From assembly GCA_963785845.1 (NCBI GenBank), contig CAWAWP010000003.1, forward strand, positions 413,324 to 477,323: DNA of 64,000 bases. Reading direction: 5' to 3'. The stretch comes from an uncultured Chloroflexia bacterium (GTDB lineage: Bacteria > Chloroflexota > Ktedonobacteria > Ktedonobacterales > JADMIN01). The notes under the pieces are model-generated. The model was given only the letters and a program-made list of their open reading frames with translations. It had not been told where the DNA came from and searched no databases. The position numbers and the translations under genes are program-made. Each line of letters begins with the position of its first letter. The first letter of the stretch is position 1. Shown here in pieces: positions 2,406 to 64,000 of this stretch.

Positions 2406-3023
2406 ATGCCCAGGCCGAAACAAGCCGATCCGTTGGCGCGTCGCCAGATCTTGGCGGCGGCGCTCACCGTCTTCAGTCGCACGGGATACGCGGGAACCAC
2501 GCTCGACGACATCACCGCCGAGGCTAACCTCAGCAAGGGCGCCATCTACTGGTATTTCGACAATAAGGCCGACCTCTTCGCCACATTGCTCGGCGAGCGG
2601 GCCAGCATCTTCTCTGAGTTGCTGGAGGACGCCGCCAAGCGCGCATCGAGTCCGTTGGGTGGCCTGGAGGCGATGTGGCAACGGTGGATGCAGGCGCTGG
2701 AGGATGATCCCGGCTACCAGGCGTATGCCCGCCTCGCGCACCTGCGGGTGGAGGTCGCCGACGAGCCCGCAAAGAGCATGGAGGCGCGGCGCACCGAAGA
2801 GCGGCGGGCGCAGGCGTTGGTGACGGAGTGGCTGCTCTCGGCCATCGCGGCGCGCGAATTGCCGTCGGGCCTCGACGTCGAGGCGGCGGCGCTGGCTTTT
2901 GTGGGCATCGGGAGTGGATTGGTGCGCGCCTGGCTCCTGGTGCCCGAGACGTTTTCGCCGCGTGGCATCGCACCGCGCATCTGGCGCATGCTGGTGGCGG
3001 GTTGGAGAGGGGCGCAGGCATGA
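2406..3023 (+). CDS. TetR/AcrR family transcriptional regulator
   Basis: N-terminal HTH block RRQILAAALTVFSRTGYAGTTLDDITAEANLSKGAIYWYFDNKADLF is canonical TetR_N. Start set at MPRPK (GAGG about 7 nt upstream). Confidence 0.85.
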   Translation: MPRPKQADPLARRQILAAALTVFSRTGYAGTTLDDITAEANLSKGAIYWYFDNKADLFATLLGERASIFSELLEDAAKRASSPLGGLEAMWQRWMQALEDDPGYQAYARLAHLRVEVADEPAKSMEARRTEERRAQALVTEWLLSAIAARELPSGLDVEAAALAFVGIGSGLVRAWLLVPETFSPRGIAPRIWRMLVAGWRGAQA

Positions 3024-5245: not shown

Positions 5246-5339
5246 GGGGCGTACCTCACCCCTGGCGCCTTCCCCTTGGGAGTCTGGGCCGCGACCGGTG
5301 CTGCTGGGCACGCAGGGAATTGCGCACCAGCGGGAGCCT

Positions 5340-10776: not shown

Positions 10777-10942
10777 CATGTTGAGATGTGGCGCTGAGGA
10801 TCGGATGCGACTGCGAGATGGCCGATGCCTCAACGCCACCCTGAGTGGAGTGCGTACAGGAGCCGCACGCAGATACACGTGCGCTTACCTCGGCACGAGT
10901 CGATGAGCGCCGTGGCGTGCGGCAGCGGAAGGGCGGACAGCA

Positions 10943-12276: not shown

Positions 12277-13521
12277 ATGTCCCGTCACATAGTGTATCCA
12301 CCAAGGCGTTTGGCTTGCGCGTTGGCGCTCGGTGTAGCGCTGGTGGTCGCCGGGTGTAGCGGTAGTTCTTCAACGCCGAGCGCTACGGTGTTGCCCACGG
12401 CAACGCCGACGCCCTCGCTGACATGGCGGCTGGTGGAGAGTCCACCGGCGCCAGAGGCGATTACGAGTGAATTGCAGGGTGTGAGTGCGGTTTCGCCCTC
12501 AGACGTCTGGGCGGTCGGGAATTTCAGGTATCTCAGTCCTCACGCGAACCTTTCGCTGCCGGGGAAGAATCCTCTGATCGAGCGTTGGGACGGCACCGCG
12601 TGGCAGTTTGTCTATGGTCCGCCCACCGATATACTCCACGACGTGGCAGTGGTGTCGGCGAACGACATCTGGGCAGTCGGCGGCGAGATCAACTTCGGCA
12701 ACACCGCATCTGTCGTGTACACGCCGTTGATCGAGCACTGGAACGGCGTGGAGTGGGCGGTTGTGCCGCCCCCTGACGCGCATTCCTCTGTGCTCCAACT
12801 GACCTCTGTTGCGGCGATCTCCGCCAACGATGTTTGGGCGGTTGGCGAACGGACGAATAACCAATTCATGGCGCAACCGCTCATCGAACGGTGGGACGGG
12901 AAAGTCTGGAGCGTTGTAGACAACCCAGCGCAGCCAGCCAATACCGAGACTAGCCTGAGCGCCATCACCGCGATTCCTGGCACGAACCAACTCTGGGCCT
13001 TGGGCGAGTCTTGGAGCCAGAAGAGTAACTCGGGCCAAGCGTTGATCGAGCGATGGAACGGCAGCGCATGGCAGATCATCGCGAACCCCGCGTTGCCTAG
13101 CGGAGCAAAGGATCTGCGCTTGAATGGTGTCGTGGCACTGTCTGCTACGGATGCGTGGGCGGTTGGCGGCTACACGGCGAGTGATAAGACCCAGAAGGCG
13201 TACGTCGCCCACTGGGACGGGACATCGTGGAAGGTGGTCTCAAGCCCGGATGTCACAGGGGGGTTGGTCGGTGTGGCGGCGGCGAACGCGAATGACGTGC
13301 GCGCTGTCGGGTCCACCACAAGTAGCACTGGAACGACTGTCCCGTTGATCGAGCAGTGGAACGGGCTGGCGTGGCAGGTCGCTACAAGTCCCACGCCGAG
13401 CGGCGCGGGTTCGAGCAGCCTTAGCGATGTGACGAGTGATGGCGCGGGTGGCTTCTGGGCGGTCGGCTCTTACGCCGACAGCAATAAGAACGCGCAGGCG
13501 TTCATCGAGCGCTGCCCGTAA
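12277..13521 (+). CDS. predicted 7-bladed beta-propeller lipoprotein, paralog 3
   Basis: Lipobox LVVAGCSG. Same seven WAVG/IE(R/H)WNG blades as paralog 1 and the same FIERCP* end. The ATGTCCCG start context is shared with the other two copies. Confidence 0.7.
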   Translation: MSRHIVYPPRRLACALALGVALVVAGCSGSSSTPSATVLPTATPTPSLTWRLVESPPAPEAITSELQGVSAVSPSDVWAVGNFRYLSPHANLSLPGKNPLIERWDGTAWQFVYGPPTDILHDVAVVSANDIWAVGGEINFGNTASVVYTPLIEHWNGVEWAVVPPPDAHSSVLQLTSVAAISANDVWAVGERTNNQFMAQPLIERWDGKVWSVVDNPAQPANTETSLSAITAIPGTNQLWALGESWSQKSNSGQALIERWNGSAWQIIANPALPSGAKDLRLNGVVALSATDAWAVGGYTASDKTQKAYVAHWDGTSWKVVSSPDVTGGLVGVAAANANDVRAVGSTTSSTGTTVPLIEQWNGLAWQVATSPTPSGAGSSSLSDVTSDGAGGFWAVGSYADSNKNAQAFIERCP

Positions 13522-13586
13522 GCTAGCTGGCAGTGTGCGGCCGGGAACGAGGATGGGTGGCCATCACGCTCCCGGTCGCGCTGCTG

Positions 13587-16841
<3,255 letters not shown>

Positions 16842-42621: not shown

Positions 42622-44307
42622 TCAGGCGCTCCGCTTGAAGTTCAGTGTACCCTGCCCACGCAACCGCGGCAGGGGCCTTCCGCGCCGCCACCAGCGCAGA
42701 CCAAGGTACCCCAGGGCTGGCCCGAAGGCGACGAACGCGCGCAGGCCGTAGACGCCGGCGGCGTAGAGCGGCAGGAAGGCGTAGAGCGTTGCCGCGCCCC
42801 CGGCGAGCAGCAGCGTGGCGATGGTCAGTTCGCCCGCGGGCAGGAGTGCCACGAGGGCTACGCCCCAGGTGGCATACCAGGGCCAGAACCATACGCTCGC
42901 CGCGGTCACATAGGCGAAGAGCGCCCACGCCCACGCCCGGAGCATGCCTTCGAGGCTGGTGGCCCGGGGGAATTGGCTCAGCCAGACGGCGAGGAATATG
43001 AGGATACCGGCAAGTTTCAGGCCGGTTTGCACGAGCGATGCTGCCGCGCCGGAGCTGACGCCAAAGGCGCCGAGGAGCGCACGCAGGGGCCATTGGGCCA
43101 CTTCGAGCAGGGAGTTGTCGAGCTGTTGCGCCGGCGGCGAGGCGGCGATGGCCCCCAACGTCCGCGGGCCGTCCCAGTAGGGCAGGGCGGTCAGCACGAC
43201 GACGGCGAGGACGAGCGCGAGCCGCCAGGAAAGCGCGGCGAGGATGCGTTGGGTCGTCTCGCCCTGGCGGCGCAGCTGATGGACGATCAGCGCGAGATAG
43301 AAGGGTAGCAGGGCCAAGAGTACGTATTTGGTGGCGATGGACAAACCGAAGGCCAGCAGCGCTGGGATCTCGTGGCCGCGAACCAGCCAGTAGATGCCCA
43401 GCAGGGCGAAGGTCAAGAGCACGGCGTCGTTGTGGGCGCTGGCACAGAATTCGAGCAGACAGAGCGGGTTCCAGGCGTAGAGCAGGGTACCCCAGAGCCG
43501 GCGGCGCGGCGCGAGGCGACCGAGGATGCCCCAGATCAGCGCGGAGTTGGCGAGATGCGCGGCCAGCCCTAGCAGCTTGAAGAGGGCGACATAGGTTGCC
43601 AGCGCGCCGCCGAGCGCCTGCGCGAGCAATGTCAGCCCGCTGGAGAGCAGCAGCCACGCGGGACCGTAGACGGAGCGTGTGTTGCGCCAGAAGACCAGCG
43701 AGAGGAAGGGATCGCGCGGGAAGTCGGAGGGGGTGGCGATCAGCGGGTTGGCATGGTGGAGCACGGCGATGCGGCCGTAGAGGATGTAGCTGAAGACGTC
43801 GCCGGAGGGTAGCGTGGGCAGCAGCGCGCAGGTGAGGCCCAACAGCGCGGCACCGCCCAGCACACAGGCGTAGGCTGTGCCCTCGGCGACGCGCACGCGG
43901 CGACTGCGCGCGAGAGCGACGGCGGCAGCGCAACTGGCGGCGACGAGCAGCGCGGCAAAGAGCGCCAAAGCGGGCCAGCCACGCTCGGCGGAGATGTTGG
44001 CCCCCACCTGGGCGTCGCCGAAGAGCAGACGTGCTGGCGCGAGCAGCCACGGCCAGACGCGCGCCAACGGCGAGAGCGCCTGCGTGACGCCACCGAGCGG
44101 GGCTACCGCGACAAGCGCCAGGAAACAGAGCTCCACGATCGCCAGCGGGGCGAGCAGTGGAGTGAGCGGAGCGATGGCACGGGGCAGATGGTTGGCAAGG
44201 GGTGAGGGGAGCACGCGACGTGACGAAGGGGGGAGACGCGCCGCCCGCGGAGCCTTCGTGGGCGTCTGCCGGGGGTGCGGGCGTCGCCTGCGCGCCATTG
44301 CCGTCAC
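42622..44307 (-). CDS. polytopic GT-C-like membrane glycosyltransferase (DUF2029-like)
   Basis: More than 10 TM helices. The loop YILYGRIAVLHHANPLIATPSDFPRDPF..SVYGPAW resembles the mannosyltransferase/DUF2029 family. ATGA overlap with the upstream gene. Preferred over the Arg-rich alternative frame 42584..44371. Confidence 0.55.
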   Translation of the reverse strand: MTAMARRRRPHPRQTPTKAPRAARLPPSSRRVLPSPLANHLPRAIAPLTPLLAPLAIVELCFLALVAVAPLGGVTQALSPLARVWPWLLAPARLLFGDAQVGANISAERGWPALALFAALLVAASCAAAVALARSRRVRVAEGTAYACVLGGAALLGLTCALLPTLPSGDVFSYILYGRIAVLHHANPLIATPSDFPRDPFLSLVFWRNTRSVYGPAWLLLSSGLTLLAQALGGALATYVALFKLLGLAAHLANSALIWGILGRLAPRRRLWGTLLYAWNPLCLLEFCASAHNDAVLLTFALLGIYWLVRGHEIPALLAFGLSIATKYVLLALLPFYLALIVHQLRRQGETTQRILAALSWRLALVLAVVVLTALPYWDGPRTLGAIAASPPAQQLDNSLLEVAQWPLRALLGAFGVSSGAAASLVQTGLKLAGILIFLAVWLSQFPRATSLEGMLRAWAWALFAYVTAASVWFWPWYATWGVALVALLPAGELTIATLLLAGGAATLYAFLPLYAAGVYGLRAFVAFGPALGYLGLRWWRRGRPLPRLRGQGTLNFKRSA

Positions 44308-46007
44308 CGGTCGCCCATCGAGGGGGGACGCTGCGGCCAGGCCGAGTCAAGGTCTGGCCAGGGCTCGCCACCCGCCGGGGGGAGCGAGCGTGGACCGGTG
44401 GGCGGCAGCGACCGCGAACTCACCGGCGGAACGGAACGTGGGCCGTTTAGCGGCACGGATGGCGTTGGACTCGCTGGGCGCGAGCGGCCAGGTATGGTCG
44501 TATCCGCGGTCCAGAGGGGCTCGTCGACCTGCACCGATTGCGAGCGCGGCACCTCGCGCGGCCAGAGTGGTGTGCCGAGCGGCTGGCCGGGTGGCAGGGG
44601 CCGCGCGACGCTCCCTGGCACACCTGGCAGGAGGGCTGCTCCACTGGGACTGGGCTGCGCCGCGACTGGCTGGAACGCCTGCCGCGACGACTGGCCGACG
44701 GCGACTTTGGCAGCGCCCATACGCCGCCAAACGGCATAGGCGAAGGCGGCCATCGTGGCGAATTCGGTCACGCCGACGAGGATGCGGTCGAGCACGCCGA
44801 CGCTTTGCACCCAGATGAATTGGGAGAGGGTCGCGGCGGTCGCGAGGTAGAGCACCGAGAGCACCGGCCAGCGCCAGAAGCCGGCGACGCGATCGTGCAT
44901 CGAGGAGAACTCCCAGATCAGCAGGAAGATGAATGGTTCGAGGTAGTAGTAGGGCCAGTTGGTCTTGCTGAGCATGGGTACGGCGAGCGCGGCGATTGTG
45001 GCGACCGCCCAGGCTTCGCGACTATAGGCGGAGACGCGCCCACGGAGAGCCGCCAGTGCGGCGACGATCACCAGGAAGATCACCACGGCCGGCATGTCGA
45101 GCCGCCGCGCCAGGGTATCGAGCGTGTGGCGAATGCCGGTGGCGTTGTCGGGCGCCGCGAAGAGCGCCCAGATCGAGTTGCCGCCGATGATCGCGGTGCC
45201 GCGCCATGTCAGGAAAGCGTAGGTGGCGTTGGCGCGATCGACGAGAAAGAACGGCGCGATGCCGACGATGGCTACGGCAGCAGCGATACCGCCGAAGCGG
45301 GCCAGCGAGCGCCATTCACGCGCGACCAGCAGGAGGACGCCGAGCGCCAGCAGCGGCATCAGCGCCGTCGTGCGGGTGAGGACGGCGAGACCGGCCAAGA
45401 GACCGGCAAGCCCCTCGTGCCGCGCCTGGAACGCGAGCAGCGCCGCGACGAGGAAACAGAGCATCAGCGGCTGTTCGATGTGATACCAGGGGCTGTAGGA
45501 TTGCCAGGTCAGCGGCGACAACACCACCAGCGAATAGGCCAAGAAGCGTTGGGCGTCGGGCATCTGCGGGTAGAAGGTGCGCAACGCGCGGAGGACGAGG
45601 TAGCCGAGGAGCGGGACGAGGAGGGTGAAAGGCAGCGAGACGAAGGTGATCTGCTCGCCGAAGTTCGCCGCGAAGCCGACCGCACGCGCCAGGCCGAGCA
45701 GCGGCGCCATCAAGAAGATGCTGAGCGGGGGGTTGTAGTTGGGATAGCCGCCGCTGGCATGCACGGCATACATCTGGAAGGGCTGGCCGCGCAGAATGTA
45801 GTCTGCCGAGCGGAAGAAGAAGTTGGTGAGGTCACTGTCCGCAGCAGTTTTGACGAGGCGCGTGCCGCGGACGATGGACTCGCCGCCAATCAGCAACGAG
45901 ACAATCGTCACCAGCGGGTAGGCCCAGCTCGGCACGCGAATGGCTGCCGCGCGCTCTGACGCTCCCACCGCAGCGGACCGTGCCGCGCTCGCCGGATCCT
46001 GTCTCAC
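44304..46007 (-). CDS. polytopic GT-C-like membrane glycosyltransferase (DUF2029-like) with Pro-rich C-terminal tail
   Basis: DLTNFFFRSADYILRGQPFQMYAVHASGGYPNYNPPLSIFLMAP followed by many TM helices. The C-terminal ~130 aa are Pro/Ser/Gly-rich. Confidence 0.6.
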   Translation of the reverse strand: MRQDPASAARSAAVGASERAAAIRVPSWAYPLVTIVSLLIGGESIVRGTRLVKTAADSDLTNFFFRSADYILRGQPFQMYAVHASGGYPNYNPPLSIFLMAPLLGLARAVGFAANFGEQITFVSLPFTLLVPLLGYLVLRALRTFYPQMPDAQRFLAYSLVVLSPLTWQSYSPWYHIEQPLMLCFLVAALLAFQARHEGLAGLLAGLAVLTRTTALMPLLALGVLLLVAREWRSLARFGGIAAAVAIVGIAPFFLVDRANATYAFLTWRGTAIIGGNSIWALFAAPDNATGIRHTLDTLARRLDMPAVVIFLVIVAALAALRGRVSAYSREAWAVATIAALAVPMLSKTNWPYYYLEPFIFLLIWEFSSMHDRVAGFWRWPVLSVLYLATAATLSQFIWVQSVGVLDRILVGVTEFATMAAFAYAVWRRMGAAKVAVGQSSRQAFQPVAAQPSPSGAALLPGVPGSVARPLPPGQPLGTPLWPREVPRSQSVQVDEPLWTADTTIPGRSRPASPTPSVPLNGPRSVPPVSSRSLPPTGPRSLPPAGGEPWPDLDSAWPQRPPSMGDR

Positions 46008-46240
46008 TGAGTCCGCTCCTCATCGGCTGACCGCCGCCCACACCACCACACGAGCCGCCCGAACCTGCCGCGGTCCGAGTTCATCGCCCGACGCCATCGC
46101 GGACGATCATTACGCCGTGAACCGCAGAGAACGGGCCATGTGCTGAGGAGTGTACCATGCGTGTGGCCTCCTGCCTATCGCCATGCACCCATGCGCCCAT
46201 GCCGACGGGCGAGCGCCACGACGAGCGCTACACGACGGTC

Positions 46241-53277: not shown

Positions 53278-54771
53278 CTATGGGCGACGCGGAGCGTTCG
53301 GCGGAGGCGGTCCGTACCGCGGGTCGCGGGGCGGTTGGCCTGGCTGGATGGCGCGTTGGCGCGCGAGGGTGCGCCGGTCGCGGCCAGCCTGGACGGCGCG
53401 GGCACGGGCGAGGGCCATCGCGGCGGCGCGCTCGCGGATCAGGCGGTTGCGGCGAAGCTGGCTGCTTATTATGAAGAAGCCGACGACGACGACGATCAGC
53501 CCGGCGAGGATGGCGAAGACCAGCGAGGTCCAGTCGTGCGCGACGGCGACGGTGGCGGAGCCGGTGGTGGGATAGGCGAATCCGTGCTGGTCAAGCACCT
53601 GCACGGTGACGTGGAAGTTGCCGTTGTTCTTGAATGACTTTGTGACGGTGGGTGCGGTAGTCGTCTTGGTGCTGCCATCGCCAAAGGTCCAGACGTAGGT
53701 TGTGGGCGTCGAGGGCGCCAATTGCCCGCCCGGCGCACTCCCAGGAGGCGCGCCGGAGGTGTCACTTGGCGTTGGAGTCGCGGGCATGGTCACCTGCGCG
53801 GTGAAGGTGACGGCATCGCCAGTGCTGGCCGATGTGGCGCTGGTGTCGAGCGCGACGGTGGGGAGTTGCTGCACGACCTCGACGTCGAAATACTTGACGG
53901 TCTGCGCGCCGGTTTTCTTGTCGGTGACGACCAGGGTGATGACGCTGGTGAGCGCGGGATTTTGGCTGACGAGATAGGCGCTGAAGGAATGGGACGCGCG
54001 GGGATCGCTCGACGTGGTGTAGTCGGCGAAGTTCCAGTAATAGGTGAGCTGTGAGCCGTCGGCAGCGTGCGAGCCGCTGGCGTCGAAGGCGATCGGCGTC
54101 TTGGGGTCGGTGATCACGGCGCTGGCCGAGGCGACGGCAACGGGCGGCGTCGGCGGCGCGGCGGCGATTACGGTGAGCGTGGCGCTGTCGAAATCGTTAT
54201 CCCACGCGCCGTTACTCTGCACCTGCGAAAAGATGGTGTACGTTCCTGGCTTGGTGAAGGTGTGCGTGGCGCTGATGCCACTTGCCGTGCCGCCGTCGCC
54301 GAAATCCCACCGCCACTGCAGGCCGCTAATGAACGCGGGGGTCAGCCCCATGTTGCTCAGATCCTCTTTGAACGCGACGGGCTGACCGGCAACGTAGTCG
54401 CTGGCGAAGAATCCGGTGATGGGCGTCTCAAGGGTTCCGCCTGGCTTGGGGCGCAGGGTGGATGGCTGATTGTTGGCGAGCATGGTAGGGGTGTTCACCA
54501 ACCCGCAGGCAAGCGCTGAGGACGCGGAGGAGCTCAGCAGGGGCGAGAACGCACCGGCGACGGCGGCGCAGAGGGCCAACGCCAGCAGCAGTTGCGCGCG
54601 TCTGCCATGCAGGATATGTCGCCACAGCACACGCCAGCGAGCCGCCCCGACTTTCTCGCCTCGCATGAGTTCCGCCTCCTCGCGTTCCACGCTCGCGGTA
54701 TCGCTCCGGCGCCGCTGTGGCGACTCCGCCGTGTGCGCCTCTGGCGCGATTATGCCGAGCGGTGTGCGCAT
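53278..54771 (-). CDS. membrane-anchored protein with three PKD-like domains
   Basis: W(R)WDFGDGGTASG..HTFTKPGTYT, YYWNFADYTTSS and YVWTFGDGSTKTT..KSFKNNGNFHVTV. N-terminal signal/TM and a C-terminal TM followed by an Arg-rich tail. Confidence 0.75.
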   Translation of the reverse strand: MRTPLGIIAPEAHTAESPQRRRSDTASVEREEAELMRGEKVGAARWRVLWRHILHGRRAQLLLALALCAAVAGAFSPLLSSSASSALACGLVNTPTMLANNQPSTLRPKPGGTLETPITGFFASDYVAGQPVAFKEDLSNMGLTPAFISGLQWRWDFGDGGTASGISATHTFTKPGTYTIFSQVQSNGAWDNDFDSATLTVIAAAPPTPPVAVASASAVITDPKTPIAFDASGSHAADGSQLTYYWNFADYTTSSDPRASHSFSAYLVSQNPALTSVITLVVTDKKTGAQTVKYFDVEVVQQLPTVALDTSATSASTGDAVTFTAQVTMPATPTPSDTSGAPPGSAPGGQLAPSTPTTYVWTFGDGSTKTTTAPTVTKSFKNNGNFHVTVQVLDQHGFAYPTTGSATVAVAHDWTSLVFAILAGLIVVVVGFFIISSQLRRNRLIRERAAAMALARARAVQAGRDRRTLARQRAIQPGQPPRDPRYGPPPPNAPRRP

Positions 54772-55014
54772 TGTCGAGGATGTGGGCGGAAGGTACGATG
54801 GCCGCGCGACGCGATTTTACAGATGCGCGCCACCGCTTTACAGATGCGCCACAGCGCACAGGCGCACACCATGCTCCATGTGTGGAGAACGATGCGCGCC
54901 TGTAGGCGTTTGTGCTGTCGGGTGCCGCGAACGCCCACGCAGCTTCGGCGCAAACGGCGAGGGGATCGCGGGGAGGCTGTTCGTGACCCTGCCGCGATCC
55001 CTTCAAGTGCTGCG

Positions 55015-56340
55015 CTAGTTGCGGGTGCTGCGCTGCGACTCAGACTTGGAGTAGCGGCTGAGCAGCTTCTGCGCGGTGTTGCGGTCGACACCGAGGCGCT
55101 CGGCGACGGCGGGGACGAGCACACTGGAGGCGATGGTCTTCTTGCCGCTGGAGGCACGCAGCTCGCGCATGACGTCGGCGATCGACTCGGCGACGTTGGG
55201 CGGCAGCGGCTCGTTGAGCGTGCGATTGAGCGTGCCAAGCTCGTTGGGACGGTGGACGGAGCGGCGCGGGCCGGAGGTGCCGGTCATCGCCTCGGCATCG
55301 CTCATCTCGTAGGGCTGGCTGGCGGCGGCGAGGTCGGCGCCGAAGAGTGTCGCAGGGCGCCGCGGGGCGGGCGCGAAGCTGACGGCGTCGCTGGCGGGCA
55401 CACCGGCGGTCCCCTGGACATCGGCGTCGAAGAGCAGCGACGGCTGCGCCATGTTGGCGCGCGCTCCGGTTGGCGCGGTGTGCGTGGCCGGGGTCGCTGC
55501 GGCGGCGTGGTTGCTGAAGGTCATCCCGCCACGACCAGACGCGGCAAGCTCGCGGCCCGCGGAGGGCGTGAAAGTCGGGTATTGGATGACGTTGTGCGCG
55601 CTGCCGCTATCCGCGGGCGAGGCGGTGGTGGCGTCGACTGCCGGCATCTCGCCACTGTCGGTGGCCGATTGGCCTTCGCTCGTGGAGTCGTCTTTGCGGC
55701 CAAAAGCGGCGCGCGCCTGGACACGAGCGGCGGCGGCGGTGGCGGCCATGCCTTTGAGTTGCGCGGCGCGGATGCGGGCATTGGCCTCGGCGCGGGCGGC
55801 CTTGAGTTCCGCCTCTTGCTGGGTGCGGAGCAGCTGCTCGGCATGGCTCTCCTGGATCTGCTGGAGGGTGCGGCCGGTGCGCGTCGGCTGGACGATTGCC
55901 CAGAAGAGGCCCCAGAACGGCGGCGCGACAGCGACCAGCACCATGGTGATGGAGATGTTGGCTGACTGCAACTGTGGCCAGATGTTATAGATCCATTGGT
56001 CGGTGTTGAAGGCGTGGAAGGAGATGCTGCGATAGGCGAGAGAGTTCCAGGTGGTGATGCCGGTCGCGATCAGCAGGCCGAGGCCGCAGAAGAGAGCCTG
56101 GATCCTGTGACCCTGGCCCCAGTGCCACGGCGCGAGTACCGAGAAGAGATAGGCCATGCCGACCAGGCCGACGGAGACGAAGGTCCAGAGGGCGAAGAAG
56201 CCCGCCTGCACAAGCGGCTCGGTGTTCGGCGGCTTTGCGCCGTCGGTGTAGACGTAGAAGTTGAAGATGCCGTCGGGGATGTAGAGGATGACGGGGAAGA
56301 TGTAATACAGCCGCGTGAGCCAGCGCGGCAGCGGAAGCAC
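55015..56340 (-). CDS. hypothetical membrane protein: N-terminal 4-5 TM, Ala/Arg/Gln coiled-coil, C-terminal HTH-like segment
   Basis: 441-aa ORF. TM region with YIPDGIFNFYVY, then AEQLLRTQQEAELKAARAEANARIRAAQLKG, and a C-terminus AVAERLGVDRNTAQKLLSRY. It vaguely recalls DUF2637-type proteins (unverified). Confidence 0.55.
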   Translation of the reverse strand: MLPLPRWLTRLYYIFPVILYIPDGIFNFYVYTDGAKPPNTEPLVQAGFFALWTFVSVGLVGMAYLFSVLAPWHWGQGHRIQALFCGLGLLIATGITTWNSLAYRSISFHAFNTDQWIYNIWPQLQSANISITMVLVAVAPPFWGLFWAIVQPTRTGRTLQQIQESHAEQLLRTQQEAELKAARAEANARIRAAQLKGMAATAAAARVQARAAFGRKDDSTSEGQSATDSGEMPAVDATTASPADSGSAHNVIQYPTFTPSAGRELAASGRGGMTFSNHAAAATPATHTAPTGARANMAQPSLLFDADVQGTAGVPASDAVSFAPAPRRPATLFGADLAAASQPYEMSDAEAMTGTSGPRRSVHRPNELGTLNRTLNEPLPPNVAESIADVMRELRASSGKKTIASSVLVPAVAERLGVDRNTAQKLLSRYSKSESQRSTRN

Positions 56341-57179: not shown

Positions 57180-57611
57180 ATGGCGATGGTGCTGGTAGTT
57201 GACGACGATACGGATATCCGCGCGACGGTGCGCGCGGCGCTCGAAGACGTGGGACATACGGTGCGCGAGGCGCGCGACGGCGCTGAGGCGATGACACTGC
57301 TGCGCGACGTGCCGGCGCGATTGGTGGCGCTGATCGATCTGCGCATGCCCAACGTGGACGGCTTCGCGCTACTGCACATGGTAAGCGAAGATTGGGAGTT
57401 GTCACGCCGGCACGCGTACGTGATCCTCAGTGCCGACACGCTTTCGCTACCAGTGGTGCGGGCGCTGCGATCGGCGACGGTGGTGGGAAGCGTCACCAAG
57501 CCGTTCGAACTCGATACGCTGCTGCAGGCGGTGGATGAGGCGGCGAGTTCGCTCGACGAGGGTGCGGATGGGGGCACGAATACCGGTACGACAAGCGAGA
57601 TCGGTGAGTAG
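57180..57611 (+). CDS. single-domain response regulator (CheY-like receiver)
   Basis: VLVVDDDTDIR..., LIDLRMPNVDG (phospho-acceptor Asp context) and ...GSVTKPF (conserved Lys). Confidence 0.9.
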   Translation: MAMVLVVDDDTDIRATVRAALEDVGHTVREARDGAEAMTLLRDVPARLVALIDLRMPNVDGFALLHMVSEDWELSRRHAYVILSADTLSLPVVRALRSATVVGSVTKPFELDTLLQAVDEAASSLDEGADGGTNTGTTSEIGE

Positions 57612-58233
57612 TGCGGCGGTTGGTTGGCGTGACGGTGCTGGCGCCGCACGCCGGATAGAGTGCCCTCCTGGGCTGAAGGTCTGTGACTCACCGCGACACG
57701 CGCGGTGTACTACCCCATCGTCGTCGGGTGCTGTGGTTGCGCGGCTGATGCCAGGCTGAGCGTCAGAGGCGCATCCTGAGGCCGCGCACGCGACGCACGC
57801 GATGCAGCACACAATGCACTGGCTAACCACCCAACCGCGATGGGTCTCGCAGACTACAGCCATTGAGCGATCAGTGGAGTCGTTGCGGAGAGGGGCGTTC
57901 TCCTGTCGGCGGCATTGGATGCACCCCAGCGCCAACCTGCCGATCTTGGCATGCCAAGTGCTGCCAAGCAGCCGCGACGCGCGACCATCGCTTGCGTGGA
58001 GAAAACCCGCGAGCGCTGCCGTGGTCCGTGGCCATGACCAGTGGCCGCACGGTAGGGACTAGACACAAGCAGCCCGCACCCGCTATCATGCGGCCAGTCC
58101 GTTCGCGCTTCCTCAGATATCGCCTGGCGGTGGGCCGCGCACGTCGCCTCCCACTGAAGGCATGACCTTGCCGGTCTCGGCGGGGCGCTCGCCGTACCGC
58201 GCGCTCGGAGAAGAGTTCAAGGGGAACGCGCCA

Positions 58234-59106
58234 ATGAAGCTCTCGCGCCGACTTGCCCCGCTCATGGCCGTATCGCTGTGCCTCGCCTTCGCGTCGTGTG
58301 ATGCGATCTCCAGCACCAACAGCACTAGCGTCACGCCCGCGCCCACCGTCACCACGCCGCACCGCGACGCGATCTTCGTGCAATATTGCGCCGACGACAC
58401 CGGCAGCTATCCGCGAGCGGATTTCTTCCTGGCGAACAAGCTGGTCGCCTCCAGCCTCGGCCAGTCTGTGGCAGCGAACTCCGACGGCCTTCAGGCCTAC
58501 GCCACCGCGATCACCAGTGATACCTACAATCCATCGAATACGCTGGCGCCGTTTGTGATCCCGGCGATCGCCGCGTACCCCTCACTGCCGACGCCGCTGC
58601 CGACGCCGCCAAATGACAATCCAGTCTCGTACTCCGCCACGGCGACGACGGTCGCCAATCAGAATAACGCTGGCATCACCAGCTACAACGACGCCGTCGC
58701 GCAGACCACCGCGCAGGTCAAAGCCGTGGAGACTCAGGTGACGACCGATGCGAAGCGCCTGGCGAACTGGAATCCCAAGATCGACTCCAAGGCCACCAGC
58801 GTTTGGGGCTGCCTGCAACTGGCGCGGCAGCGCTTCGCCACGCAAAGCGGCACGAAGTACCTGATCATCGCCTCGGATATGCAGAACAACACCAGCGTGG
58901 ACTACACATCCGATTTCACCGCGCACCAATACCTCAAAGGCGTCAATGTCAGCGTGATCTATTACGTCTGCCAGAACGGGGCGGGCGCTTGCCAGAGCCT
59001 GCAGAATCAGTGGACGCATGTCTTCACCGCATCGGGCGCGAAGTCGGTGAAGTTCAACGATCCCGCCCAGTCCGACGCGCTGGGCAACCTGTTCGGAGGT
59101 GCATGA
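58234..59106 (+). CDS. lipoprotein with vWA-like (MIDAS-containing) fold
   Basis: Lipobox LAFASC. Candidate MIDAS residues in vWA order: IFVQYCADDTGSY (DxTxS), KATSVWGCLQLARQRF (Thr), YLIIASDMQNN (Asp) and GVNVSVIYYV. A Pro-rich/coiled insert lies in the middle. Confidence 0.55.
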   Translation: MKLSRRLAPLMAVSLCLAFASCDAISSTNSTSVTPAPTVTTPHRDAIFVQYCADDTGSYPRADFFLANKLVASSLGQSVAANSDGLQAYATAITSDTYNPSNTLAPFVIPAIAAYPSLPTPLPTPPNDNPVSYSATATTVANQNNAGITSYNDAVAQTTAQVKAVETQVTTDAKRLANWNPKIDSKATSVWGCLQLARQRFATQSGTKYLIIASDMQNNTSVDYTSDFTAHQYLKGVNVSVIYYVCQNGAGACQSLQNQWTHVFTASGAKSVKFNDPAQSDALGNLFGGA

Positions 59107-59107
59107 G

Positions 59108-61240
59108 ATGCCAGACTTTTTGACTCCCGGACTCATCGCTATCATCGCTGCCGTGGTCGTGGCGTTGCTGCTGATCGCCGTGTCGCCGCAGAGCATCGCC
59201 GACGCCTTCGGCCAGGTCTTCCAGTTGCTGAGCCGGCTGGTCGCCGCGGTGGCGGGTGAGGCGGAGCTAGGCGCCACCACGCTCTTTGGCGTGCTTGGGG
59301 GCGTTTTCAACGCGCGCCCGCCTAAACCCGCGACTGCGCCTAGCCCTTCGTCCACCGCGGTGACGCCCGCCGCGACGCCCGGCGCTGCGCCGAGTTCCGC
59401 GCCCTCTACGCAGCCCGCGCCAGCCTCGGGCGCGCAACCCGCCGCGCAAGACGAGAACACGGAACTGCCGTTTTCGTGGATCGCCGAGACGGTCTTCACA
59501 CGGTTGCTCTACCTCGCCACTGTGGCGATCATCGTCGCCTCGGACTTCGTCTTCGCCATCTTGCGCTTGCAAGCGGTGCTCTTCCCTTCGCTGCAACCGC
59601 CGATCACGGATCTCGCCTTTCTCAGTCTGCTGACCGGCGCACTCTTCGTCTCCATCGTCCTTCTGACCGGCGCGCTAACACTTGATTTTCTCGACATCCT
59701 GCCGCAACCGGTGCGTCTCTTCCCCACGCTGCGCGAAAACATGCGCCGGCTGCTGCTCTTCATCTCCGTTCTCAGTCTGGTGCTCGCGCTGGTGGTCGTC
59801 GGCGCGCTGTTCTTGCAGGGTCAGTTGCTCAGCTCGCTCTCCGAGACGGCCCCGGTGGCCGCAGTCGCGCTGGCGGCACTGCTCGGCATTTTGCAGGTGC
59901 TGGTGGTCTTCCTTGGCGCCTGGGGCGCGGTGCGCGGCCTGGCGATTATCCTCGCGCTGATCGGTGGGGTGATCGGCATCGTCCTGCATCTCATCGCCGT
60001 CGTCCTCGAATGGCTCTCCGAGGCGCTTGATCTCATTGGCACATCGGTCATCGCCGATATCATCTGGGGCATCGCCGCCGTCTTCGGGCGCAAACGCCCC
60101 GGCGAGCGCATCCAGCGCACGGCTCTGTTGACCAACGTCCTCTCGGTGGTCGGCTATGGCGACCGTAGCAGCACCTTCACCGCCGGCCTCGTGCAGGACG
60201 TGCTGAGCATGTACGGGCGGGCGGGCTTGCTGGCCGTCGGCACCTACGCGCAGGAGCCTGCCGTGCTCTCCGACGTGCAAGAGCGCTTTGGCCGCCTCGG
60301 CGTCAACAATATCAGCCCGATCCTGCCGCACGACTCCGATCCGCTTGGCTCGCTGAAGAGCCAGGTGCTCCGCGCCTACAAGGGCAAGCGCGCCACCAAC
60401 AAGATGCTGCTGTGGATCGTCGACGGCGAGCTGGCGACGCAGAGTGTCGATACGCTGGCGCAGATAAAGCGTTCGATGTCTGACCTCTCGATCACCGTGC
60501 TCTGCCTGCTGCCGCCAGGTGGCATCAAAGGGACGGAGCCGTTCAGCCGACTCAAGCAGCTCGCCACGCGCGACCAACACGCACAGAGCGTCATCGCCAC
60601 GACGATCATGGTGGACGACCGTTCGCCGATGTATCGCATCCTCGGCGAACCCAATGCCGATCGGCTCGTGGCACGCAGCCTCTCTGGCATGCTGCTGGCG
60701 CCGCTGCACAACACGGCCAATCCGTCGTTCGTCAACGTGGTGCGCGCGCTCAACGAAGCGGGACAGGCGTTCTCCGCGCTGGCGGTGGATTCCGCGGGTA
60801 TCGTTACCACCGATGGCACGGGGAGCGGCAATCGCACCACTGGCAGCGGCAGCGTCTCGCCCGAGTTGGCCCAGGAGCGCACGCAACAACTGGCGACACG
60901 CCTGCTCACCGGCACCAGCTCGACCACGGTGCAGCAGGGGCCGACGAGGAATCAGCCCGCGCTCTACCTCAACTTCATCGTGCCGATCTCGGCGAGGAGC
61001 CCCGAGGCCGCCGACTACCGCGGCAACATCAGCAACTGGCTTGCGGATCACTACTCGATCTATCTCTACGGCGTCGTCGATGGCGAGGGCGTCGATCTTT
61101 CGGACAAGAACCCTGGCTCGCAGGGCGACCGCTACACGCAGGTGGGCGTGCTCTACGGCCTCGGCGATACGCCGCCGCAGACATCGACGGCTCCCGAACA
61201 AGCGTCCGCGCAGCCCCGCGTGGTGGACGCGGGCAACTAG
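59108..61240 (+). CDS. polytopic membrane protein with C-terminal degenerate FtsZ/tubulin-like domain
   Basis: The ATG lies 9 nt after GGAGG and directly after the upstream stop (59104..59106). About 7 TM helices plus a Pro/Ala linker. The C-terminal ~380 aa align by eye with FtsZ block by block (see finding), but the G-rich GTP loops are replaced. Confidence 0.55.
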   Translation: MPDFLTPGLIAIIAAVVVALLLIAVSPQSIADAFGQVFQLLSRLVAAVAGEAELGATTLFGVLGGVFNARPPKPATAPSPSSTAVTPAATPGAAPSSAPSTQPAPASGAQPAAQDENTELPFSWIAETVFTRLLYLATVAIIVASDFVFAILRLQAVLFPSLQPPITDLAFLSLLTGALFVSIVLLTGALTLDFLDILPQPVRLFPTLRENMRRLLLFISVLSLVLALVVVGALFLQGQLLSSLSETAPVAAVALAALLGILQVLVVFLGAWGAVRGLAIILALIGGVIGIVLHLIAVVLEWLSEALDLIGTSVIADIIWGIAAVFGRKRPGERIQRTALLTNVLSVVGYGDRSSTFTAGLVQDVLSMYGRAGLLAVGTYAQEPAVLSDVQERFGRLGVNNISPILPHDSDPLGSLKSQVLRAYKGKRATNKMLLWIVDGELATQSVDTLAQIKRSMSDLSITVLCLLPPGGIKGTEPFSRLKQLATRDQHAQSVIATTIMVDDRSPMYRILGEPNADRLVARSLSGMLLAPLHNTANPSFVNVVRALNEAGQAFSALAVDSAGIVTTDGTGSGNRTTGSGSVSPELAQERTQQLATRLLTGTSSTTVQQGPTRNQPALYLNFIVPISARSPEAADYRGNISNWLADHYSIYLYGVVDGEGVDLSDKNPGSQGDRYTQVGVLYGLGDTPPQTSTAPEQASAQPRVVDAGN

Positions 61241-61527
61241 CGCTAGCACTTCGCGGCTTACCGTGGGCGACTCTCGACGTGAACGCGTCCTGAGCCGCCC
61301 ATACGTGCGCGCAGACGCGGGCTATCTCTGCACACTCGGCACGGATTCTGCTGCGCGTGATGCGCTACTCTGGCAACGTCATCAGTTGTGGCGCGGAGGG
61401 TTCATGGGGCGTGTAGGTGGAGAGTCGGCGGAACATGTGTCCGCGGTGGCGGCATCGACTCGCCGGAAGCCCGCGAGCTGGACGTTCTCTCGCGGCGGGC
61501 GGCCGCTCCGCGCCGGAGCCGCCACTA

Positions 61528-64000
61528 ATGGGCATCCTGACGGCGACGCTGGATGCCCTGGCCGATCCTGTCATCGTCTATGACCTCAACGACCGTATAC
61601 TCTTCACCAACGCCGCGGCGCGCGGCGCGATGGCCCCGCAATCGTCGGGGGAGTATTTCGAGCGCCCGCTGGCGGGACGCGCGGCGGCGCTCTCGCCGCG
61701 AACCGCCGCCGGAGAGCCGCTCGCCGAGCATGACTGGCCATTGCGCCGTGCCCAACGCGGCGAGGTGCTGACCGGCGAGCACGCCGTCGAGCTACGACTC
61801 ACGGGAGCAGACGGCGTCGAGCTGTGGGTCAGCCAGAGCGCGTCGCCCGTGCGCGATGCGACGGGGGCGTTGGTCGGCGTCGTCACCGTGACGCGCGACA
61901 TCACCGCGACCCACCGCGCGCAACAGGCGGAGGCTGAGCGCGCCGCCGACCTCTCGGCGATTATCGAGACGATACCTGATGCGGTGGCCGTCTACTCCGC
62001 GGACGGCAGGGTGCTCCACGCCAACGCCGCGTTCAACGAGCTCTTTGAATTGGAGCGCATTGCGGGCTTCTTCGCACAGTCGGTGGAGGAGCGCCGCCGC
62101 CTGTTGGATGTGCGCAGCTCGGAGGACGTCCCCGTCCATCAGGATCAATCGACTTATGCACGTGTGCTGCGCGGCGAGACGGTGAAGGGGGCGACCGCGG
62201 TCGACGTCCGCATACGGCGCCCGACTGGCGAGGATGTGCTGCTCAACGTGGTCGGCAGCCCCGTGCGCGATGCCAGCGGACGCGTCAGCAAGGCCGTGAT
62301 GGTCTACCGCGACACGACGGAGCGGCGGCGCATCGGTATGGATCATGTGCGCCAGCGGCGCGAGCTCGAAGCGATCCTCGACACCGTGACCGACGGCGTG
62401 GCGCTCTTCGACGCGGAGGGGCAGTTGGTGCGGACCAACGCCGCGGGCATGCGCCTCTTCGGCCTGGGAGAGCGCAGATCGGAGGACGCGGGGCAGTCGT
62501 CGCAGGTCGAGCGAGCGCAACTCCTGGGGCTGCGCGACGAGCAGGGCGAGTTGTTCACCGAGGAGAGCTGGCCGTTGAGCCGCTTGCTGCGCGGCGAGGC
62601 GCTCACCGGCGAGCACTCTTTCGACGTGATCCGGCAGCATCCGGACGGGCGCGAGGCGTACCTCAACATCGAGGGGGTGCCGATGCGCGACGCGGAGGGG
62701 CAGATCGTCGGGGCGGTGGCGGTGGCCCGCGATGTGAGCGAGCGCCGCCGCCTGGAGCGGCGCACCCGCGAGGCGCTCGACGCCCTGCTGGAAATGGCGC
62801 AGGCGCTGGTATCGGGCGAGTCTGCCCCTCGCAAGGCGGGGTTGCAGTCGCTGCGGGTCGTCGCGCGGAGGCTGGGGGAACTGATCCGCAGTGTGCTCGA
62901 CTGCGAGCGCGTCGCCATCACTGCCGTGGAGCCGGGGCGCGGGACGACGCAGGTGCTGGCGGTGATCGGCCTGACGCCGGAGCAGGACGCGCACCTCTGG
63001 GCAAACCTGCCGCATGAGAGCCGCCTGAGCGACACGGTCGATCCGCAGTCGTTGGCGCGCTTGCGAGCGGGCGAGGTGCTCACCGCCGACCTGGGCGAGG
63101 AAGGCCTCGACGACCCGAAAAATCCGTATCGGGCGCGATCGGTGCTGGTGGCGCCAGGGCTGCTGCGCGGCCAGTTGCTCAGCGTGCTGACGGTGGACTA
63201 TGGGAGCAAGCCGCACGAGTACCCCATCAGTGAGCAGGCGCTTGCCGGCGCAGTCGCTCAACTGATGACGCTGGTGATCGAACGCGAGCGGCTGGTGCGC
63301 GAACGCGCCGAGGCGCGGGCGAGCGCGCTGGCGCTGCAAGAGTCCAATCGCCGCATGGACGAGTTCATGAGCATCGTCAGCCACGAGTTGAAGACGCCGC
63401 TGACGACGATCAAAGCCAACGTGCAACTGGCGCGCCGCCGCGCCGCGCGTAGTGTCGAGCGCGCCAAACAGGGGGGCGCCGGCGATGGCGCGGAGAGCGA
63501 GGTGATGCACACGCTGCTGACGCGGACCGAATCGGCGGTCAACCGGCAGGAGCGCCTGGTGAACGATCTCCTCGACGTCTCGCGCATTCAGACTGGCAAG
63601 CTGGTGCTGCGCGTCGAGTCGATCGATCTGGCGGAGGTGGTGCGCGATGTTGTGGAAGAGCAGCGGCTGGCCGCGCCGTCGCGCGTGATCTCGCTGGCCG
63701 CGCCAGAAGGGCCGCTGCGCGTGTGGGCGGACGCCGACCGCATCCGGCAGGTGATCACCAATTACGTGAACAACGCCGTGAAGTATTCGGCGGAGGCCGA
63801 CGCGGTGTCGGTGCGGCTGGCGCGCGAGGACGCAGTGGCACGGCTCGACGTACACGACCTGGGACCCGGCATCCCCGCCGAGGAACACCCGCACATCTGG
63901 GAGCGCTTCCACCGCGTCGCGGGGATCGAGCACCGCAGCGGCTCCGGCGTCGGGCTGGGGCTGGGCCTCTATATCAGCCGCGAGATCGTCGAGTTGCACG
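61528..64000 (+). CDS. sensor histidine kinase (3 PAS-like + GAF-like + HisKA + HATPase_c), 3' end outside the window
   Basis: I translated this frame manually; it has no stop before the window edge, so it is absent from the ORF track. Three PAS-like units end in ..PVRDA(T/S)G..V..(T/Y)RD(I/T)T. HisKA is FMSIVSHELKTPL and the G2 box is GSGVGLGLGLYISREIV. Confidence 0.9.
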   Translation, partial: MGILTATLDALADPVIVYDLNDRILFTNAAARGAMAPQSSGEYFERPLAGRAAALSPRTAAGEPLAEHDWPLRRAQRGEVLTGEHAVELRLTGADGVELWVSQSASPVRDATGALVGVVTVTRDITATHRAQQAEAERAADLSAIIETIPDAVAVYSADGRVLHANAAFNELFELERIAGFFAQSVEERRRLLDVRSSEDVPVHQDQSTYARVLRGETVKGATAVDVRIRRPTGEDVLLNVVGSPVRDASGRVSKAVMVYRDTTERRRIGMDHVRQRRELEAILDTVTDGVALFDAEGQLVRTNAAGMRLFGLGERRSEDAGQSSQVERAQLLGLRDEQGELFTEESWPLSRLLRGEALTGEHSFDVIRQHPDGREAYLNIEGVPMRDAEGQIVGAVAVARDVSERRRLERRTREALDALLEMAQALVSGESAPRKAGLQSLRVVARRLGELIRSVLDCERVAITAVEPGRGTTQVLAVIGLTPEQDAHLWANLPHESRLSDTVDPQSLARLRAGEVLTADLGEEGLDDPKNPYRARSVLVAPGLLRGQLLSVLTVDYGSKPHEYPISEQALAGAVAQLMTLVIERERLVRERAEARASALALQESNRRMDEFMSIVSHELKTPLTTIKANVQLARRRAARSVERAKQGGAGDGAESEVMHTLLTRTESAVNRQERLVNDLLDVSRIQTGKLVLRVESIDLAEVVRDVVEEQRLAAPSRVISLAAPEGPLRVWADADRIRQVITNYVNNAVKYSAEADAVSVRLAREDAVARLDVHDLGPGIPAEEHPHIWERFHRVAGIEHRSGSGVGLGLGLYISREIVELH

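Follow-up and report, generated by a model that had tools for sequence, protein, structure and literature searches.

A conserved, coupled gene pair of Ktedonobacterales encoding a lipoprotein with a predicted vWA fold and a polytopic membrane protein with a predicted tubulin/FtsZ-like domain

We analysed a 64-kb stretch of DNA (64,000 nucleotides, hereafter the window) from an uncultured Chloroflexia bacterium of the order Ktedonobacterales (GenBank assembly GCA_963785845.1, contig CAWAWP010000003.1, positions 413,324 to 477,323). This study concerns two adjacent genes of the window, here denoted gene 1 and gene 2, which are predicted to encode an extracytoplasmic lipoprotein and a membrane protein with a C-terminal domain resembling tubulin and FtsZ. 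All coordinates below are those of the window.

58234 to 59106, + strand: gene 1, a lipoprotein of 290 amino acids (aa) with a predicted von Willebrand factor A (vWA) fold; ATG at 58234, stop at 59104-59106
59108 to 61240, + strand: gene 2, a polytopic protein of 710 aa with a predicted C-terminal tubulin/FtsZ-fold domain; ATG at 59108, stop at 61238-61240

Both same-strand open reading frames show the codon bias of real genes, with third-position GC contents of 0.81 (gene 1) and 0.84 (gene 2) in a window that averages ~0.65. An in-frame GTG at 59099 offers an alternative start for gene 2; the ATG at 59108 was favoured because homologues begin with MPDF. A preliminary description, made from the sequence alone, had stated that gene 2 starts directly after the stop of gene 1 and that the two genes look translationally coupled. 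The junction (GGAGGtgcaTGAgATG; in full ggaggtgcaTGAgATG) is real.

59095 to 59110, + strand: coupling junction, with the Shine-Dalgarno sequence GGAGG at 59095-59099, the gene 1 stop TGA at 59104-59106 and the gene 2 ATG at 59108-59110

The GGAGG sits 8 nucleotides (nt) before the gene 2 ATG, which begins one base past the TGA. The same layout is common to six homologous loci (L001-L004, L006 and L007), in which tt[ct]gg[ag]gg (GGAGG in five, GGGGG in L007) is followed by the stop codon and then by an ATG 1-4 nt further on. Its recurrence in six further loci shows that translational coupling of the pair is a conserved trait, shared by seven loci including the window, and not a chance feature. 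The Shine-Dalgarno sequence of gene 2 was also observed to be embedded in the codons of a conserved C-terminal L-F-G-G motif of gene 1 (59087-59099 in the window; also L001-L004, L006 and L007), so that the protein motif and the ribosome-binding site are conserved together.

Gene 1 was characterised by its N-terminal export signal, its predicted fold and a set of conserved residues.

58234 to 58299, + strand: signal peptide and lipobox, MKLSRRLAPLMAVSLCLAFAS-C22 (…LAFAS-C22), read from the sequence
58393 to 58407, + strand: loop 1 of a putative metal ion-dependent adhesion site (MIDAS), D54-D-T56-G-S58, immediately behind the first beta strand (modelled at E47-54)
58621 to 58764, + strand: helical insertion of 48 residues (130-177) in the vWA fold, with a mean predicted local distance difference test (pLDDT) score of ~90 or more over most of its length
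58795 to 58800, + strand: MIDAS-like partners T188 and S189
58876 to 58878, + strand: MIDAS-like partner D215

The N-terminus of gene 1 consists of a K/R-rich N-region, a hydrophobic core and LAFAS-C22, and the lipobox cysteine C22 was kept in 45 of 46 homologues (family consensus LLLAAC or LLLAGC). A signal peptide with a lipobox and a near-invariant cysteine marks the product as a predicted lipoprotein, as had been proposed. Four further cysteines are conserved (C52, C193, C246 and C253), which fits an oxidising, extracytoplasmic location; they probably form two disulfides. A word-indexed protein search returned 97 homologues, all annotated as hypothetical. One gene 1 homologue is named 'coiled-coil protein SlyX' by JGI.

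The AlphaFold2 model of gene 1, for which 38 homologues were used, had a pLDDT of 88.6 and a predicted TM-score (pTM) of 0.81. In a Foldseek search of the PDB with this model, all matches at E ≤ 1e-3, and nearly all others listed, were vWA-fold domains, including Rpn10, TFIIH p44, the integrin I domain, the Sec23/24 trunk, ArnB, factor B and BatB. The E-values of these matches ran from 4e-5 to 2e-3, and their TM-scores on target reached 0.61. Gene 1 is accordingly modelled as a vWA alpha/beta fold; the earlier assignment to vWA stood at the level of the predicted fold but not at that of the vWA profiles PF00092 and PF13519. The DxTxS...T...D residues that had been noted in MIDAS order are present and mostly conserved (D54 44/46, T56 41/46, S58 32/46, T188 40/46, S189 41/46 and D215 39/46). 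T188 and S189 precede the helix H191-201 and D215 follows the fourth strand (beta4), and in the model D54/T56/S58, T188/S189 and D215 would correspond to the three MIDAS loop positions, with 70-96% kept in the 46 sequences. The motif is degenerate in the mobile-element branch of the family described below.

Gene 2 combines a membrane domain with a large soluble domain.

59108 to 60085, + strand: membrane domain, residues 1-326, with ~7 transmembrane (TM) helices, from alignment A1 and hydropathy
59312 to 59470, + strand: Pro/Ala/Ser-rich disordered linker, residues 69-121 (pLDDT ~32), a variable region in A1
60125 to 61177, + strand: tubulin/FtsZ-fold domain, residues ~340-690, from the AlphaFold2 model, Foldseek searches of the PDB and a viral library, and hhalign

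Hydropathy placed TM segments at residues ~6-25, 128-150, 166-190, 214-236, 248-272 and 277-300, with a weaker one at 306-325, which agrees with the ~7 helices counted earlier; the soluble part that follows runs from ~340 to 710 and spans ~370 residues, close to the ~380 first given. The linker varies in length among homologues, reaching ~250 aa and a Tyr/Ser/Gly/Asn-rich composition in one clade. The most conserved motifs of gene 2, DFVFAILRLQAVLFP and LTGALTLDF, lie in the membrane domain, as do the residues E127, D146, R153, Q155, D193 and R203, which are invariant in A1. Assuming a cytoplasmic C-terminal domain, 13 K/R residues would be inside (including those of RLFPTLRENMRR and RKRPGERIQR) and 1 outside, a positive-inside ratio that favours this orientation. 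We infer that the N-terminus of gene 2 is outside and the C-terminus inside.

The soluble domain of gene 2 is predicted to have the two-domain tubulin/FtsZ fold, which comprises a nucleotide-binding domain of Rossmann type, the core helix H7 and a C-terminal domain with four strands. In the AlphaFold2 model, which had an overall pLDDT of 68.9 with residues 340-690 mostly at 75-90, the elements follow the order S1-H1-S2-H2-(S3)-H3-S4-H4-S5-H5-S6-H6-H7-H8-S7-H9-S8-H10-S9-S10. FtsZ shows the same succession: six beta-alpha units come first, followed by a long core helix, a loop and a short helix, and finally by S7-H9-S8-H10-S9-S10. The first 29 Foldseek matches in the PDB were all tubulin, gamma-tubulin, FtsZ or TubZ, with E-values from 1e-7 to 2e-3 and a probability of 1.00. 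They aligned over 284-432 columns (at least 364 in all but one), covering essentially whole targets, with TM-scores on target of 0.39-0.60 (the best, 0.60, with FtsZ) and an identity of ~10%. The next fold, that of the signal recognition particle (SRP) GTPases, appeared at E ≥ 3e-3 with partial coverage. In the structure search of the viral library, phage tubulin was on top.

We also compared the family with FtsZ independently of structure, using hhalign with a profile built from 142 domain sequences of the family (Neff 7.7) and a 10-sequence FtsZ alignment, composed of E. coli FtsZ (checked against the PDB) and nine bacterial and archaeal FtsZ genes from a plasmid collection. One collinear local alignment of 272 columns was obtained, joining family columns 1-343 to FtsZ 11-310, in the following register.

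T1: family VVGYGDRSS, FtsZ VIGVGGGGG
S4/T4: family LLWIVDG, FtsZ MVFIAAGMGGGTGTG
S5: family LSITVLC, FtsZ ILTVAVV
S6: family TTIMVDD, FtsZ SLITIPND
T7/H8: family NTANPSFVNVVRALNEAG, FtsZ LMNVDFADVRTVMSEMG
S8: family LYLNFIVP, FtsZ VLVNITAG

The preliminary description had aligned blocks of gene 2 with E. coli FtsZ by eye and in order, and this independent alignment recovered the same register, weakly (P = 0.019). Eighty shuffled FtsZ profiles scored 13-14 ± 2.5, and one of the 80 reached the real score. The sequence signal to FtsZ thus appears to be more than chance but weak, and homology would rest mainly on the predicted fold, for which the evidence, though predicted, is solid. Of the proposed kinship to FtsZ and tubulin, the structural part was borne out by the 29 top Foldseek matches, but the profiles PF00091, PF12327 and PF13809 gave no match.

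The nucleotide-binding loops of FtsZ and tubulin could be located in gene 2 through the hhalign register.

60146 to 60172, + strand: T1-loop position, V-G349-Y-G351-D-R-S-S, where FtsZ has GGGGGN
60413 to 60436, + strand: T4-loop position, W436-I-V-D439-G-E-L-A, where the tubulin signature is GGGTGTG
60707 to 60736, + strand: T7-loop position, H534-N-T-A-N538-P-S-F541-V-N, where FtsZ has N207-V-D209-F-A-D212

At T1, G349 and G351 were kept in 63% and 75% of 109 non-redundant family members; at T4, D439 was kept in 71% of the same members. A GGGTGSG-type motif ([SAG]GGTG[SAT]G) was found in none of 136 family members, which extends to the whole family the earlier remark that the glycine-rich T1 and T4 loops are not conserved. 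In the superfamily, the T7 loop (NxDxxD/E) activates hydrolysis of GTP in the adjacent subunit. At T7 of gene 2, the Asn and Phe corresponding to FtsZ N207 and F210 are kept, and the acidic D209 and D212 are both replaced; N538 was kept at 83%, and H534, N538 and F541 are invariant in A1. Without the T4 signature and with both acidic T7 positions substituted, this domain is in our view unlikely to bind and hydrolyse GTP in the canonical way. The T1, T4 and T7 loop positions nevertheless rank among the best-conserved parts of the soluble domain, the other best-kept positions in the 109 members being S506/P507, G513, P626 (95%), G659 and G661. Loops that line the pocket and the surface between subunits are still under selection, which fits a contact or docking role.

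A word-indexed protein search returned 33 homologues of gene 2, all annotated as hypothetical, the best of them 76% identical. The exact product of gene 1 is contained in the protein collection; that of gene 2 did not come up, either because the word-indexed search missed it among TM-rich candidates or because the gene had not been called in the source assembly. An exhaustive hidden Markov model search with the soluble domain recovered 139 clusters (50% identity) at E ≤ 1e-3, all uncharacterised. They fell into two architectures, one with ~7 TM helices followed by the domain (680-1030 aa) and one comprising soluble proteins of 360-510 aa. Ktedonobacterales was the sole taxon label among named members, look-ups of 20 distant members included. 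When a profile of the mobile-element branch served as the query, a word-indexed search yielded only 3 proteins. In the literature searched, we found no description of this family of membrane tubulin-like proteins and vWA lipoproteins.

Synteny was counted over 17 distinct loci by local hmmsearch with profiles of both proteins. A gene 1 homologue was located directly upstream of gene 2 and on the same strand in 13 of the 17 (the window, L001-L004, L006, L007 and L022-L027), very distant loci included, so the two genes are indeed conserved as neighbours in relatives. L008 carries a truncated gene 1 remnant, L011/L012 carry two divergent gene 1 paralogues, and L005 (where gene 2 is frameshifted) and L009/L010 have no gene 1 homologue. 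The GC content of the loci ranges from 46% to 61%, compared with ~65% in the window, and the association of the two genes is therefore old. Two side observations concern individual loci. L011 contains tandem vWA lipoprotein paralogues (306 and 307 aa; 632-2811, minus strand) divergent from the tubulin-like genes, with unannotated genes of 496 aa and 753 aa downstream. L005, L007 and L008 are three contigs of the metagenome-assembled genome (MAG) MFD00822.bin.2.150, each with a gene 2 homologue; these copies share long identical internal stretches and differ at their ends, which could be due to recent duplication with gene conversion, to strain mixture in the MAG or to an assembly artefact.

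In four sister loci, a soluble paralogue of the tubulin-like domain is encoded directly downstream of the membrane-fused gene.

L006, ~9862-11301: soluble paralogue
L007, 10612-12018: soluble paralogue
L009, 8442-9689: soluble paralogue
L011, 6001-7158: soluble paralogue

These paralogues are 385-468 aa long and without TM helices, and some have a Pro/Ala/Glu-rich C-terminal tail. In a rough neighbour-joining tree they formed a sister clade to the TM-fused clade that includes the window protein, and the soluble clade contains about as many clusters as the TM-fused form. No soluble paralogue or second copy was found within the 64-kb window. L009 also carries a gyrase A gene interrupted by an intein (12429-14367; Pfam DNA_topoisoIV, Intein_splicing, DNA_topoisoIV).

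In five distant loci the pair heads a conserved five-gene cassette.

L022, 4979-11494: cassette
L023, 6135-11045: cassette
L025, 6080-12662: cassette
L026, 5990-12802: cassette
L027, 6183-11791: cassette

The order is gene 1, gene 2, a small protein with three TM helices (125-143 aa, homologous across loci), a P-loop ATPase and a Replic_Relax protein, the last being fused to the ATPase in L025 and L027 and separate otherwise. The ATPase has its Walker A motif at residues 31-61 and no TM anchor, and it is TraD/VirD4-like (SXT_TraD 1.2e-14; weak matches to TrwB_AAD_bind, TraG-D_C, DUF87 and AAA_10). Serine recombinase and excisionase genes occur near the cassettes. The cassette resembles a DNA-transfer module, hitherto undescribed, that belongs to an integrative element. 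The neighbour-joining tree placed the window protein in another clade than this mobile-element type. In L001, TnpB and DDE transposase genes lie beside the pair; a STAND NTPase gene is located nearby in L024.

The pair in the window is flanked by regulatory genes and a promoter-like site.

57180 to 57611, + strand: receiver-only response regulator, the upstream neighbour (Pfam Response_reg, 6e-17)
58060 to 58089, + strand: promoter-like site TAGACA-18-TATCAT, downstream of the receiver gene and upstream of gene 1 (consensus match only, 10/12 positions)
61417 to 64000, + strand: PAS/GAF histidine kinase (Pfam PAS, GAF, HisKA and HATPase_c), starting at ~61417 and running off the window

The site at 58060-58089 is a possible promoter of the pair's own, on weak evidence, and terminator and promoter scans gave nothing decisive. 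The receiver and the kinase on the same strand had been pointed out before; Pfam confirmed both identities, but neither is a conserved partner. Synteny of the kinase extends only to L002, the closest relative (75% identical). The receiver is absent from the other loci except L009, where a different receiver gene (5261-5650) precedes a distant gene 2 homologue, an independent recurrence. A receiver therefore stands upstream in two unrelated loci, in L009 without gene 1 in between, which may reflect chance in regulator-rich genomes or a loose regulatory link. We rejected the receiver and the kinase as parts of the module since they are not conserved across loci.

The remaining context of the window is ordinary chromosomal sequence (cmk, an acyltransferase, a diacylglycerol kinase, an extracytoplasmic function sigma factor and the histidine kinase), and a mobile-element context for the window copy was rejected because its neighbours are housekeeping genes. 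The nearest neighbours of the pair are the receiver, the PAS kinase, a protein with membrane and helix-turn-helix (HTH) features and a PKD protein. The HTH-bearing protein (441 aa; 55015-56340, minus strand) has an N-terminal multi-TM region, a long Ala/Gln/Arg-rich, helical, low-complexity middle and a weak C-terminal HTH_23 match (E = 0.0019), with no homologue in the other loci. The PKD protein (53281-54816, minus strand) contains several PKD domains. Further upstream, two adjacent large polytopic proteins (42625-46019, minus strand) gave weak GT87 and PIG-U-like matches and may be glycosyl- or mannosyltransferases. Together with the PKD protein, they constitute an envelope-related neighbourhood.

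The reading that we prefer, and hold tentatively, is that the pair encodes an envelope-spanning complex of two proteins with a pseudo-GTPase tubulin-fold platform. Gene 1 would be a lipid-anchored vWA protein on the outer face of the membrane that binds an external partner, probably through a metal ion, and the ~7-TM protein encoded by gene 2 would couple this outer binding to the internal platform. The ~370 cytoplasmic residues of gene 2 would form a module for docking or oligomerisation that works without nucleotide and is fixed beneath the membrane; because the glycine loops T1 and T4 and the acidic T7 residues are lacking, the domain is most likely a pseudo-GTPase. The platform would recruit partners through tubulin-type contact surfaces, the partner being the protein itself or, in sister lineages, the soluble paralogue, and in the mobile-element branch plausibly the TM-less VirD4/TraD-like ATPase. 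The topology, a physical interaction between the two proteins, the lack of GTP binding and the function are all points that we infer. A trans-envelope scaffold had already been suggested for this locus; the predicted folds of both proteins, their coupling and their conserved pairing speak for it, but the scaffold role itself stays conjectural.

Comparison with known proteins places the pair near several of them. Relative to FtsZ, tubulin, TubZ and PhuZ, the modelled gene 2 domain shares the two-domain fold, the element order, G-x-G at T1 and Asn and Phe at T7; it differs in having no T4 signature, no acidic T7 residues and no Pfam match, in its ~10% identity, and in being an integral membrane protein instead of a soluble one. 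The SSO1376-type crenarchaeal FtsZ-like protein has N-terminal TM helices and retains GTP-binding motifs (PMC2875224). Gene 2 resembles it in the fusion of a tubulin-superfamily domain to TM helices, whereas SSO1376 keeps the GTP motifs, has no reported vWA lipoprotein partner and belongs to another phylum. Gene 1 is similar to MIDAS-type vWA domains and integrin I-domain adhesins in its predicted fold, in Asp, Thr and Ser at the three putative MIDAS positions and in its predicted extracytoplasmic location. Compared with these adhesins, it has DxTxS in place of DxSxS, a variable third position, the 48-residue helical insertion, a lipid anchor and no Pfam vWA match. Alpha/beta-tubulin and BtubA/B are paralogue pairs, and in the sister loci the TM-fused gene and the soluble paralogue likewise stand side by side and form sister clades, which suggests heterotypic pairing. 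In contrast to alpha/beta-tubulin, one of the partners here is integral to the membrane, GTP motifs are missing from both, and the window has no soluble paralogue.

Several observations weigh against an envelope-spanning complex with a tubulin-fold platform. The window contains neither a soluble paralogue nor an ATPase. Outside the membrane, gene 2 exposes only very short loops, which offer no obvious contact surface for gene 1, and since the strongest motifs and invariant charges lie in the membrane domain, the primary activity could lie in the membrane. The gene 2 model was built on 26 sequences, its TM part is poor (one 77-residue helix), and its root-mean-square deviation (RMSD) from tubulin is ~7 Å. 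At the sequence level, gene 2 matched nothing in Pfam (E ≤ 1), NCBIfam, PADLOC or the PDB sequences, and Pfam at E ≤ 10 on ten distant family members gave nothing tubulin-like. PDB sequence searches returned no tubulin or FtsZ chain, only marginal unrelated matches (E 2.4-8.9), and the domain-profile search of the PDB sequences gave only a HAMP-domain protein at E 0.08. The hhalign score of the family against FtsZ (23.25, probability 2.5%) is weak, and it emerged only with the broader family profile and the 10-sequence FtsZ alignment: comparing a 14-sequence domain alignment with the single E. coli FtsZ sequence gave no significant match. Gene 1 also had no match in Pfam, NCBIfam, PADLOC or the PDB sequences, with PF00092 and PF13519 absent at E ≤ 1.

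An alternative that we regard as rather unlikely derives the window pair from the DNA-transfer apparatus of a mobile element, of which it would be a remnant or a chromosomal derivative. Gene 2 would then take the position of a VirB6-type protein, as the channel or anchor in the membrane, and gene 1 would serve at the surface as an adhesin or receptor. The window copy would still be involved in traffic related to conjugation; it could, for instance, act as an entry-exclusion factor or a receptor, or assist related elements. The membrane parts of type IV secretion systems (T4SS) and conjugation machines in monoderm bacteria include a VirB6-type polytopic protein and a VirD4/TraD coupling ATPase. 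The distant branch resembles them in that it combines a polytopic protein, whose cytoplasmic domain is large, with a small TM protein, a coupling-like ATPase and a relaxase-type gene. It is this branch that speaks for the DNA-transfer origin: the pair precedes the 3-TM protein, the TraD/VirD4-like ATPase and Replic_Relax with tight spacing or overlaps in all five loci, with the serine recombinase and excisionase genes nearby, and the L001 pair adds TnpB and DDE transposase neighbours. However, no match to VirB6/TrbL, VirB4 or other T4SS models was found, the cassette ATPase has no TM anchor, and the window has none of the extra genes: no ATPase, relaxase or recombinase was found near the pair within the 64 kb, where the context is ordinary chromosomal. 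The window protein also belongs to the other clade, and its sister lineages add a soluble paralogue instead.

It is less probable still that the membrane domain is an active transporter, channel or enzyme, with the tubulin-like domain a regulatory or ligand-binding Rossmann-type domain and gene 1 a substrate-binding or accessory protein. The concentration of conservation in the TM domain, with E127, D146, R153, Q155, D193 and R203 invariant in or near the membrane, would suit such an activity, and the pocket loops of the soluble domain, conserved with new residues, would fit a different ligand. However, no transporter or channel family was matched, the Foldseek matches to channels were weak and partial (E ≥ 9e-3, probability 0.5-0.7), and stand-alone soluble paralogues are more easily explained by protein-protein assembly.

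A further possibility, which we consider improbable, is that the pair is a minimal conflict system against phages or plasmids, with the outer vWA protein as the sensor of invasion and the membrane protein as the effector. The theme of tubulin-like and vWA proteins at the membrane is already known from FtsZl1 operons, which encode, next to a highly diverged tubulin-superfamily protein, vWA and OmpA proteins, kinases and a P-loop GTPase (Makarova & Koonin 2010, PMC2875224) and were later read as GAP1-N2 GTPase conflict systems with tubulin-domain and extracellular-vWA membrane proteins (Kaur et al. 2020, PMC7159879). This parallel favours the conflict reading, as do the patchy distribution of the family, its partial location on mobile elements and the STAND NTPase gene nearby in L024. 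The pair shares with FtsZl1 a tubulin-like protein encoded beside a secreted or membrane-bound vWA protein, and a membrane complex is predicted in both; a vWA protein in the same operon is found here at the level of the modelled fold only. FtsZl1 keeps the GGGTG(S/T)G loop and has a coiled coil together with a helical domain, but not the canonical C-terminal domain, whereas gene 2 has lost the signature, is predicted to have the full two-domain fold, is fused to ~7 TM helices and does not match PF13809. FtsZl1 operons usually add a P-loop GTPase, protein kinases, and OmpA or FNIII proteins, and none of the FtsZl1-type partners (P-loop GTPase, protein kinase, OmpA) was seen beside the pair in the window or the other loci. 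Against a conflict system, PADLOC gave no match at E ≤ 1, there is no adjacent GTPase, FNIII, MoxR or enzymatic effector, and the GGGTGSG-bearing FtsZl1 domain with its coiled coil is absent.

That the soluble domain is an active GTP-dependent FtsZ-like polymer forming a membrane-bound filament is highly improbable: the complete predicted two-domain fold, G-x-G at T1 and Asn and Phe at T7 would allow it, but the T4 signature occurs in 0/136 members, T1 reads GYGDRSS and the acidic T7 residues are replaced. We give equally little credence to the tubulin likeness being an artefact of structure prediction from a shallow alignment of a generic alpha/beta fold, for although only 26 sequences were available, TM-scores are ~0.5, the RMSD is ~7 Å and no profile matched, the 29 consecutive top matches fall in one superfamily and span both domains almost in full, the fold that ranks next matches only partially and with an E-value at least 1000-fold worse, the second (viral) library agrees, and the structure-free hhalign comparison gives the same collinear register above 79 of 80 shuffles.

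To our knowledge, the well-studied tubulin and FtsZ proteins are all soluble GTPases that reach membranes through adaptors. If the proposed complex with a tubulin-fold platform is correct, a tubulin fold lies inside a polytopic membrane protein that has shed its nucleotide machinery and is partnered with an extracytoplasmic vWA lipoprotein, which would extend the range of the superfamily. The family would also provide a natural test of which tubulin functions, such as contacts and scaffolding, survive without GTP, and would be a concrete, simple version of the long-predicted but untested membrane systems of the 'vWA plus tubulin-like' type. Furthermore, the TraD/VirD4-like ATPase and Replic_Relax in the sister branch point to an uncharacterised DNA-transfer module. 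Cultured Ktedonobacterales grow as branched filaments, and we know of no conjugation machinery described for them. On this basis we speculate, in a scenario that is itself unlikely in its entirety, that the family is a nucleotide-independent, membrane-integral branch of the tubulins, which may have arisen as the cytoplasmic docking platform of an unrecognised conjugative DNA-transfer machine of Ktedonobacteria-like soil bacteria, made up of the five cassette proteins, and may then have been domesticated on the chromosome, where pairing with a soluble paralogue in the manner of alpha/beta-tubulin would serve a submembrane assembly controlled from the cell surface.

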